Source: a virus (lineage: Duplodnaviria > Heunggongvirae > Uroviricota > Caudoviricetes). From it: DNA of 18,229 nucleotides. Made by a program: the position numbers. Below are positions 1 through 3,000 of the stretch, in pieces. The stretch covers positions 1 through 18,229 of IMG/VR virus record IMGVR_UViG_2778261567_000023; one strand, 5' to 3'. The first letter of the stretch is position 1. Each line of letters begins with the position of its first letter.

Positions 1-3000
1 TTAGAAGGCAATTGCTCTGTCCGGCTGAGCTAACAACGCATGAAGTTTTCTGTAATCATCCTCGTTTGGTAACTGCCACTGGCTGACACTGAACCAGTGC
101 GATGTCATGTTTTTCTTTCCTGTTTTATTAATTTTTCCCCAGCAGAAGACAAGAAAAAGGTTCCGGTGTTATCGGAACCTTTCAGAACGTAGAATACAAT
201 TCTAGATGCTACAACCATAGCACATGTTTTTGTGCGCACACAACCCTTTCAGGTAGTACAACTTCAGGATCCATATCCAACCTTACTCCCTGCAGAGTCA
301 GAGCTCCTTCCAGAAATGCTTCAGACGCCTTCAGGGATGTCCGTACGCTAAGATGACTACGGTCTATCGCCTCAGCAATTGCACGCGTTGAGAGGCCGCC
401 TATAAAACGTAACCCCAGGATCAGCAAATCATCGTACGGGCAAACCATACTCATATGCGCGATGCAGGTATCAATCACCGCTCCGTCCTCGTCAGAGCAA
501 CCGGGTTTGCCACTGTCGGTTACGTCCCGGGAAGTAACCGACATTGAGGGCCAGTCAACCATTGAACAGTATTCCTCGCTCGCCGCCCATCGCCCCCACC
601 GCTCCAGAACAAGTTGCATATCTCTACGCATAACGCTGGCCTCTACGTTTTGCTACGAAAAAATTTTCTGAGAACTACGTCTGTTTATCCGTGGGTGTGG
701 ATAACGCAGTTCCGATTCGCATATTGCATGTATCAACATGCAAAAAGTTGCTAATGCGGAGTGGAACCACCTGCCCCCACCTGGAACCACCTTTTCCTAA
801 CCTTTCCCTCAATCGACTTATATATATATATATATGGGGTTTCTAGTAGAAAGGCGGTTCCAGTGGTTCCGCCCCGCTTGCCACAAGGTCTGCAAGGTGG
901 AACCACCTTCTCTTTTAGGTGGTTCCGCGTGGTTCCAGCGGTTCCCAAACCTTGCATTTTTTCCCCCCAATTCGCCTTTGGGCACGCTTATACCCGCAAT
1001 TTTGCAAAACATTACTAATTCGCATTTCTTCGCGTTTTCCGATGCGGTCAGGAGTTAGCCCAATCGCATCACGCAAAACATCACTTGCGCGTAAAAATTT
1101 GCAATTTCGCGGAAGTTCATTAGTCATCAGGTCTGGCGTGTCGAGCCATTTCTCTACCGTTTCAAGCCAAGCATCCTTGATGGTGTACTGTTCATGGACA
1201 CTCGCTGCCAGTTGTTCAGCCTCACGGAACTGGATACCCCCCAGACGCTGAAACACCTCACGAGCCTCAGCCCAAAGTAAAAGGAGATCTCTTTTTATCG
1301 CTTTCACGTCGACTTTCGACACTTCCACGGGGAGCCAGCGACGGTTACCAGTCTTGTCCGCAAGGAATTCGTCCTCATTGGTGGTACCAACGAACACCAG
1401 GCGACGAGGAAACTGGGTGGCGAACTCCCGGTATTTCGGGATCCAGTTTTCGTGAGTACGCGTCACAAACGCTTTGATTGACTCCAGCTCTTTGGTATTA
1501 AGTCCGCGCAGTTCACCAATCTCTGCCACCAGCCGACCACGCATTTTTCGAGCGAGATCATCGTCTTTTTCGGCAAAAGAGATTTCAGTAAAAAACGCAG
1601 GATCAGGGCTCAGTGCCTCCACTCCGGAAGACTTACCGCAGCTCTGTGGACCAACGAGGATCGGCACCATATCCGCTTTGATGCCTGGCTCCAGTACTCG
1701 CCCCGCCAACGCGGTCCACATGTACATAGACACCGCACGGGTATAAGGCGTGTCGGCTGTACCGAAGTGCGTATGGTAGAAACATTCGATGCGCGGCACG
1801 CCATCCCACTCCAGCCCGTTCAGCCAGGTGATCGCTGAATCGAATGGTTGTTCATCGGCTGCAAGTAACACCACATCGCGAATAAGTTCACGACCAACAG
1901 GTTTAAATCCCCGCTTTTCCATCGTGATGCGCAGGCGCGCATAATCCGCATCGGTGAATGCTCGCCATTGTCCGGATCCTGCGGGAGCAAACATGATTTC
2001 GTCGCGGAACTGGTCAAAGCGAATATCGATGTCCACAAAATCAGGGCGTACTACTGCTTTGGCTGCGTTGCTGATGGTTGCCTCGATACGCCCCCATTTA
2101 TCACGCTCGAAAGCAGGCAGCGGTAAAGGTTCCGCCACTTCGGTGCTGGTCAGATCTTCGAAATCGTCGTTGCGGATCCCGATGGCATTAAGGAAATCTC
2201 CGTCATCACGATGCGCACAACTGGCATGCAGGCATTTAAAATGCCCCTGCTCAAAGCCCGCGGTTCCCGCAGGAAAATAAGCTGTGCTTGTTGGATCGCC
2301 CCCGCTACTGTGGCCGTCTTCAAACGGACAGCGGATATATCGTTCACCATTTGCGCCATCCAGCAGCGTCCAGCCATTGGCATCAAGATATTCAGCTGTA
2401 TCATCCGTCGCGCAGGGCGTGAATGCTGATCGGTCGCGCATCTTCGTGTTGCCCGCTTCGGTGGTTACCGACACAGGGAGTTGTTCAGCCAGGCGCTGCC
2501 ACAGCGTTTCAAGCTGCTCACCAGTAATAGCCGGAGGTTCATCCGGCAAACCACCGTCCCATTCAATACGCGCGCCGCTGCTGTGCGTACCACAGGCAAC
2601 GAACTGCTGCCCGTTCGCCAGCAACTCGATAATGCCCATATCCCCCGCCAGGCGATGGATACGCTTACGGAAATCACCATCAACGGCCAGCAGATACAGA
2701 CACTTATTACTGTTTGCTCGCCAGCGTCGCGGCGGCAACTCCCCCAGAAGTTGCACAAGCGTTTTGCGAATATCTGCCTGAATGTCTTCATCTTCGCTAT
2801 CGCAGTCCAGCGCCAGCCAGCCATGGCCTGTACGCACGCAGATGCCATAATCCGGTTCATTCGACCAGCGGGCAAAATCATGCTCAGTAACAACATACCC
2901 GGTCCATTGAGCAATACCGGTGACCTGGCGGTCCCGGTTATAGCGACTTGGCGTCTTACCCAGCGCTTTCAGTTTACTATCAGGGGATATGGTCGCACCG

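Follow-up and report, generated by a model that had tools for sequence, protein, structure and literature searches.

We analysed an 18,229-nt stretch of DNA from a tailed virus (Caudoviricetes; IMG/VR record IMGVR_UViG_2778261567_000023, positions 1 to 18,229), referred to here as the window, and concentrated on an array of short repeats (iterons) at positions 763-946. The array lies at the 3' end of a gene for a 728-amino-acid (aa) primase-helicase, reaches into its last codons and is followed downstream by a gene for a Q-type antiterminator. A first-pass annotation of this DNA had seen in the array a probable replication origin recognised by the adjacent protein.

Of the 14 copies of the hexamer GGAACC in the window, eight fall inside 763-945. 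Three cores lie on the + strand (at 763, 783 and 899) and five on the - strand (856-861, 865-870, 921-926, 931-936 and 940-945), so that our recount bears out the earlier description of eight cores in both orientations around a (TA)8 tract. No other non-trivial hexamer in the window forms a cluster as large as these eight copies within 186 nt; among 100 shuffles that preserved dinucleotides, the maximum reached by any hexamer in a 186-nt span was 3-5 copies, and the Poisson probability of at least eight copies is about 5e-15 with the rate taken from the rest of the window. We found that the repeated unit is a 9-mer, GGAACCACC, which usually has a T on both sides, giving the consensus (T)GGAACCACC(T). 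All four exact copies of GGAACCACC in the window are inside the array, which holds three further copies with one mismatch and one with two. A ninth, degenerate iteron, GCCCCCACC, is placed between both distal copies.

The iterons are organised into two inner arrays and an outer cluster (Table 1). The distal inner array, on the + strand, is inverted relative to the proximal inner array, on the - strand, and the phasing differs between them, being 9 bp in the proximal and 10 bp in the distal array. The proximal inner array has two copies in the window versus three in most relatives, the third unit being present, for example, in an O103:H2 relative (L002). A spacer of about 28 bp separates it from the outer cluster, in which the copies at 918-926 (-) and 899-907 (+) form a perfect 10-bp inverted repeat with an 8-nt spacer; an outer element made of two to three copies and then one inverted copy is also seen in other iteron classes (see below). 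The outer cluster overlaps the end of the primase-helicase gene. Read on the - strand down to the stop codon TAA at 915-917, the gene ends with GTT TGG GAA CCG CTG GAA CCA CGC GGA ACC ACC TAA (V W E P L E P R G T T stop), which confirms that three iterons are located within its last ten codons, and the last nine residues, EPLEPRGTT, are these three iterons translated. The stop codon of the window gene begins with the T 3' of GGAACCACC and is completed by the two bases after it. In several other classes (loci L056, L047, L005 and L067 among them) the first iterons themselves supply the stop codon of the primase, as TAA in GTAACC or TAG in TAGAC; in the GTTACC class the first copy is GTAACC, which gives the stop. 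In the classes with longer tails, the peptide beyond the wing of the protein likewise corresponds to translated iterons (GTT, VTT, QPVPASK).

Between the two inner arrays lies an AT-rich core. According to nearest-neighbour energies, 815-835, within this core, is the least stable 20-bp duplex of the whole window (z 3.97), and 811-851 is its second least stable 40-bp stretch. The TA tract is polymorphic among relatives, ranging from 11 to 18 nt. An alignment of the core from 16 representatives of different iteron classes has 36 invariant columns out of 71, and the motif AACCCC-(AT)n-AAGTCG (coding strand) is invariant across iteron classes, so that conservation goes well beyond AT-richness. We therefore propose that the core combines a DNA-unwinding element, as the first-pass annotation had suggested for the TA tract, with a conserved motif unrelated to the iterons.

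Since we detected no sigma-70-like promoter on the - strand of 632-946, no terminator on the transcribed (-) strand of the same interval, no Rfam family in 185-1300 at E <= 1 and no long open reading frame (ORF) in the array region, no other reading of these kinds explains it. The sole terminator-like match within the array is the inverted iteron pair, on the + strand. We also considered whether a DnaA box is a conserved part of the putative origin and rejected it: the box TTATCCACA at 696-704 is found in only 19 of 95 homologous loci, all of them close relatives sharing this flank, and near-matches to the DnaA box occur in the window at chance level (4 versus 3.5 expected). In the window this exact box (- strand) is held within an inverted repeat, TTATCC-N8-GGATAA, at 685-704, about 60 bp from the distal iterons. 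GC skew was discarded as an indicator, as it tracks transcription direction and gene orientation and is uninformative on the origin.

Table 1. Features of the array, of the adjacent initiator gene and of the surrounding phage genes (window coordinates)
Feature	Position	Strand	Details
Distal inner array	763-791	+	GGAACCACC 763-771, degenerate GCCCCCACC 773-781, GGAACCACC 783-791; 10-bp phasing
AT-rich core between inner arrays	793-852		60 bp; 70% A+T; includes (TA)8T
TA tract, (TA)8T	819-835
Gene-proximal inner array	853-870	-	Units 853-861 and 862-870; GGAACCACT, GGAACCGCC; 9-bp phasing
Outer iteron cluster, overlapping gene end	897-946		Three copies on - strand, one inverted copy 899-907 (+)
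Outer cluster copies in coding orientation		-	937-945 GGAACCGCT, 928-936 GGAACCACG, 918-926 GGAACCACC
Initiator gene, 728 aa	915-3101	-	Archaeo-eukaryotic primase (AEP) Prim-Pol, VapE-like helicase, predicted C-terminal winged helix
Winged-helix domain coding region (predicted)	918-1112	-	Residues 664-728
Winged-helix parts (predicted)			H2 672-680; recognition helix H3 689-701 (KREEMRISNVLQN); beta-hairpin wing 704-711 and 714-721
Wing second strand KCKVW	945-959 (codons)	-	Residues 715-719; candidate iteron-specificity determinant
Q-type antiterminator gene	209-631	-	Downstream of array
cro-like gene	3091-3276	-	Precedes 728-aa ORF
cI-like repressor gene	3390-4082	+	Divergent from cro-like gene
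Enc34-type single-stranded DNA-binding protein (SSB)	7609-8157
Family-A DNA polymerase	10044-12107

The protein encoded next to the array combines primase and helicase parts. Residues 427-639 are a VapE-like P-loop helicase (Pfam VapE-like_dom, E 2e-59). The N-terminal half, which includes a Cys/His cluster, had no match in the PDB by sequence, and we assign it as a Prim-Pol because Pfam matches it in homologs: PF09250 was matched in the N-terminal part of 22 of 38 full-length homologs, with a best E of 1.6e-11. A phmmer search against the PDB returned a single significant match, 7PDS_A (E 7e-33, residues 393-656), which corresponds to Rep1 of the Staphylococcus aureus pathogenicity island SaPI1, and a profile of 39 homologs matched the same chain with E 1.1e-45. 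The C-terminal residues, from about 664 to 721, are predicted to fold as a winged helix.

On the other hand, the protein is not a primase-helicase of the P4 alpha type, with which the first-pass annotation had compared it. The best BLASTP match to P4 alpha had an E of 0.68, and the domains differ, alpha being built of a Zn ribbon, Toprim, D5_N and Pox_D5 versus Prim-Pol and VapE here. P4 alpha matches PF08273, PF13362, PF08706 and PF03288, none of which (0/4) is matched by the window protein. DUF5906 is common to both, with E 2.5e-09 for alpha and E 0.00026 for the window protein, the latter at 22 bits and thus below the 27.6-bit cutoff. Because detectable similarity is lacking and the domains are different, we regard the comparison with P4 as an analogy and not as a family assignment. 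The homologous and experimentally studied model is instead the self-loading helicase of the SaPI Rep/PriRep type.

Comparing the iterons with homologous elements, as the first-pass annotation had recommended, we scanned genomes and viral contigs with the protein and obtained about 100 loci, of which 95 had enough flank to be examined. We counted 9-mers with at most one mismatch from -90 to +420 of the stop codon and used equal-length segments inside the gene as controls. In 92 of the 95 loci, one 9-mer occurs 6-11 times near the stop codon and in both orientations, whereas the control segments contain 1-5 copies. Loss of the repeats from homologous primase loci would have spoken against an origin; the only exceptions to the layout are three loci, including degraded copies in the insect symbionts Sodalis (L016) and Symbiopectobacterium (L020). 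A common order is followed: after two to three iterons within the final codons come a single inverted copy, a tandem triplet, the core with the TA tract and an inverted triplet, which in relatives likewise has a degenerate middle copy. This order is kept in Escherichia, Salmonella, Enterobacter, Pectobacterium, Yersinia YeP4, Xenorhabdus, APSE-1, Gilliamella and a Burkholderiales metagenome-assembled genome. Looser layouts, with 9-bp tandem units and inverted copies, follow the primase genes of four distant phages, namely Caulobacter Jess A, Acidovorax ACF1, Marinobacter PS3 and Kosakonia Kc259.

The protein of Yersinia YeP4-6 is 73% identical to that of the window, and those of the Hamiltonella APSE phages are 72% identical over residues 312-720. 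Among 5,426 complete E. coli genomes, 95 have prophages that contain the intergenic region. In the literature we found no description of this origin for the APSE phages or the E. coli relatives; the comparative paper on APSE predicted the origin by a skew-based tool only. In APSE-1 (L106, NC_000935), an annotated hypothetical gene, P4, spans the AT core and the inverted iteron triplet at 3445-3666 and is probably not a real gene.

While the layout is kept, the sequence of the unit changes: we could distinguish at least 12 iteron classes, and within each locus all copies belong to one class. These classes are GGAACCACC, GTAACCACC, GTTACCACC, GTATCCACC, TAGACCACC, GWAGCCACC, GTCCCCACC, GTACCAACC, GTCCCAACC, TAGACAACC, GTAACAACC and GTCACCAC, and more distant types exist. 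Iteron positions 1-4 and 6 vary, while position 5 and positions 7-9 (C and ACC, respectively) are nearly constant. The proteins of the enterobacterial classes have an essentially invariant recognition helix, KREEMRISNVLQNCGY, and it is the wing that varies with the iteron class, chiefly in the motif G-K-x-x-[KR]-[VI]-[WFY]. Tryptophan at residue 719 pairs with C at iteron position 6, and phenylalanine or tyrosine with A, in 14 of 15 classes. Moreover, in each of the three matched pairs of classes that differ only at iteron position 6 (TAGACCACC/TAGACAACC, GTCCCCACC/GTCCCAACC and GTAACCACC/GTAACAACC) the wing switches as well. Residue 715 in turn goes along with the 5' half of the iteron, with Q found with TAGAC, K with GGAAC or GTCCC, and a hydrophobic residue with GTAAC, GTTAC or GTACC.

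A natural chimera narrows the difference further. The DNA of the window and that of loci L038 and L094 are about 100% identical over 850 nt, until 41 nt before the stop codon. They then diverge through +195, with the iterons changing from GGAACCACC to TGTACCAACC and the core being kept, and are again about 100% identical past +195. The two are otherwise about 99% identical, and the class-specific differences between the encoded proteins are restricted to residues 715-719 (KCKVW to MTRIF) and the iteron-encoded tail. Seven further substitutions, G35S among them, are scattered along the protein; six of the seven are not class-specific, since they are shared with a relative of the GGAACC class (L033). 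A small helix-turn-helix (HTH) gene located 3' of the array in many loci can be dismissed as the specific binder, as it is near-identical in loci with different iterons.

Taken together, the second wing strand (residues 715-719) appears to determine specificity, and the 3' half of the iteron, which is constant (C-C/A-A-C-C), is probably read by the invariant recognition helix. These wing-iteron patterns are suggestive and do not amount to proof. One may go further and picture the wing strand and the adjacent iterons as a compact, exchangeable cassette that related prophages swap, resulting in at least 12 mutually orthogonal replication specificities; we put this forward tentatively, as an idea with slightly less than an even chance of being right. 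There may even be a near-readable code, in which W versus F/Y corresponds to C versus A at position 6, and the nature of residue 715 (K, Q or hydrophobic) to the variable 5' half.

Considering all the above results, we believe that 763-946 is very likely the vegetative replication origin of the phage, read by the adjacent 728-aa protein. The earlier proposal of an origin recognised by the C-terminal part of the neighbouring primase-helicase is thus supported computationally, by the layout kept in 92 of 95 loci, by the coupled change of wing and iterons and by the predicted winged helix, and the position of the TA tract within the least stable 20-bp duplex agrees with an unwinding function. By homology with the SaPI Reps, the 728-aa protein would be a self-loading initiator-helicase of the SaPI Rep/PriRep type, whose C-terminal winged helix would bind the 9-bp iterons. 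The oppositely oriented inner arrays bracketing the 60-bp core could position helicase rings on either side, with hexamers assembling on both flanks before the (TA)8 tract melts. The N-terminal AEP Prim-Pol would then prime, and the family-A polymerase and Enc34-type SSB of the phage would elongate. Early transcripts from the cro side would traverse the array toward Q, and, by analogy with lambda, such read-through could activate the origin. The outer cluster at the gene end may provide added affinity or autoregulation.

This arrangement very probably follows the Rep-ori design of the SaPIs and other phage-inducible chromosomal islands (PICIs), found here in a complete temperate phage. The structure 7PDS shows SaPI1 Rep1 bound to DNA; experiments have established the SaPI Reps as initiators, self-loading helicases that recognise short iterons through a C-terminal winged helix (PMC9371898). 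The SaPI ori comprises 6-12 iterons directly downstream of rep, with an AT-rich region near the centre and at least two iterons per side in opposite directions (PMC9371898; PMC6092414), and in SaPI5 a primase is fused to Rep (PMC9371898). In comparison with SaPI1 Rep1, SaPIbov1 Rep and SaPI5 PriRep5, the window has a homologous VapE-like helicase domain with a predicted C-terminal winged helix, and a predicted ori directly 3' of the initiator gene in which opposed iterons, at least two per side, flank an AT-rich core; the primase-helicase fusion is as in SaPI5. The two differ in several respects. The element carrying the array is a complete temperate phage with its own polymerase and not a satellite; the units, in tandem triplets, are 9 bp long where those of the SaPIs are penta- or hexanucleotides; the gene itself contains two to three iterons and, in some classes, the stop codon; the AT core contains a conserved non-iteron motif; and about 70 aa follow the helicase, versus about 115 in Rep1. 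A SaPI5-like origin has been predicted earlier in a true phage, Enterococcus phage Abitsa (2026 paper, PMC13517437). Abitsa differs in being a lytic phage of a Gram-positive host, and its origin is purely a prediction, reported with no analysis of specificity classes.

Other systems are more remote. P4 alpha resembles the window protein in being a fused primase-helicase with a C-terminal origin-binding domain (predicted here) and short iterons in both orientations, and crr lies directly 3' of the alpha gene; however, P4 has two separated cis sites, ori and crr, versus the single array seen within the window. In lambda, the origin overlaps the initiator gene O and likewise combines iterons with an AT-rich region. 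Further parallels are that ori-lambda is located in the rightward early transcript, upstream of Q, and that lambdoid phages exchange their iterons and the DNA-binding part of the initiator as a module. Yet O is neither helicase nor primase and recruits the host DnaB via P, whereas the window protein has both Prim-Pol and helicase domains. Furthermore, the iterons of lambda are 19 bp long, four in number and directly repeated, and occupy mid-gene positions to one side of the AT region. In the window, the arrays are inverted, enclose the AT core and are found at the very 3' end of the gene, with three of about nine iterons inside it. SV40 large T antigen and papillomavirus E1 are initiator-helicases that act on inverted short repeats, where two hexamers melt the adjacent AT-rich DNA; the parallel is functional only, as their origin-binding domains differ in fold and position and their hosts are eukaryotic.

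Several points weigh against our interpretation. The matching of initiator and iterons is accessible only through a proxy, the joint change of iteron class with wing residues 715-719 and tail, and this joint inheritance may reflect linkage as well as function, since fewer than 50 bp separate the wing codons from the iterons. In addition, the classes are not phylogenetically independent, and APSE-1 breaks the rule on residue 719, having W with GTAACAACC. As the recognition helix is invariant while the iterons vary, an unusual, wing-based readout is required. Binding, melting, origin activity, double-hexamer loading, priming and the residue-base contacts are what we infer from sequence comparison, and, as the window is only part of the phage, a second origin or cis site may exist elsewhere. 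This last point bears on the idea that the array is a secondary cis element, acting as an enhancer or in handcuffing or incompatibility, with the true start elsewhere. Such an idea has a precedent in P4, where crr is directly 3' of alpha and carries the same octamers in both orientations while ori is 4.5 kb away, and of the roughly 35-42 kb of the phage only about 18 kb lie in the window. We nevertheless consider it very unlikely: exact iterons and a second cluster were not found elsewhere in the 18-kb window, the array possesses its own conserved AT-rich core with the least stable 20-bp duplex, and SaPI-type replicons need only a single ori 3' of rep.

The array stands precisely between the primase gene and Q, which share a strand and have no intrinsic terminator between them. 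This location could instead be explained by a regulatory roadblock or operator separating the early operon from Q, at which a bound protein, possibly the primase, would time late expression while no replication starts. Indeed, an initiator bound in a transcribed region necessarily meets RNA polymerase. This explanation is unlikely, however, given that the layout is kept where the next gene is a small HTH, a hypothetical or a terminase gene and not Q, and that inverted tandem arrays around a conserved, very unstable AT core are the anatomy of an origin. The homologous SaPI system is a proven origin, and a regulatory side effect could coexist with it. It has also to be considered that the repeats might be functionless, arising by slippage or as a by-product of a repetitive C-terminal peptide, or might serve packaging or integration. 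The length of the TA tract and the number of units do differ between close relatives, as would be the case for slippage-prone DNA, but most copies are non-coding, and different orders of Proteobacteria keep the same succession, orientation and phasing of the copies, with the units changing their sequence jointly. As for packaging or integration, the integrase gene is about 15 kb off, and in a relative Q and the lysis genes separate the array from the terminase genes by more than 2 kb. We regard this whole group of explanations as extremely improbable, and keep an origin read by the 728-aa protein as our interpretation.

The remaining content of the window is that of a phage. Besides the genes in Table 1, it encodes a DUF2800 nuclease and an integrase, and we rejected the possibility of a PICI or satellite because it has its own polymerase, SSB, nuclease, cI/cro-like regulators, Q and integrase. 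In the O103:H2 relative, genes for holin, lysozyme, terminase and portal come next, and related contigs are 35-45 kb long. The element is a complete temperate phage, a prophage of E. coli related to the APSE (Sendosyvirus) phages.

Several further features were recorded along the window. At its edge, 1-44 (-) contains part of a tRNA gene that shares 98-100% identity with the tRNA-Arg that Shiga toxin (Stx)-converting phages carry downstream of Q; this identity indicates that the junction from Q to the late region is mosaic with lambdoid Stx phages. Downstream of Q, 150-183 (-) forms a strong hairpin followed by a T run (GAAAGGTTCCG-ATAACAC-CGGAACCTTT TTTCT), which resembles a tR'-like terminator at which Q could act, and which accounts for two of the GGAACC matches outside the array (159 and 174). 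In the replication/recombination arm, a gene with NUMOD4 and HNH endonuclease domains at 5781-6299 (+) has the DUF2800 nuclease gene on one side and an unannotated 300-aa ORF on the other; it probably represents the insertion of a homing endonuclease. Finally, three palindromes with about 24-bp spacing (CACCACGGTGGTG, GAACCACGGTGGTT and GAACCACCGTGGTTC) at 13600-13667 overlap a TTGACA-like hexamer between an Arc-like repressor gene (13223-13576, -) and rightward ORFs that include a Rha-family gene. This looks like an operator region of the immI type. Their half-site, GAACCAC, resembles the origin iteron, probably by coincidence, and we rejected the palindromes as a second initiator site, judging them to be the operator of the adjacent Arc-like repressor.

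Altogether, these findings locate the predicted origin of a widespread and unstudied group of enterobacterial prophages, which includes the APSE phages that protect aphids through Hamiltonella. What they add is a map of iteron specificity classes and a candidate five-residue cassette: the near-isogenic chimera narrows the change of specificity to five wing residues and the iteron-encoded tail, and the at least 12 natural classes can serve directly for work on DNA recognition by a winged-helix initiator. If the cassette model is true, origin specificity would be read mainly by the wing and not by the invariant recognition helix, and would be reprogrammable. Swapping of the cassette could then allow prophages to avoid cross-talk with co-resident prophages or hijacking by satellites, and the iteron classes could supply orthogonal replicons.

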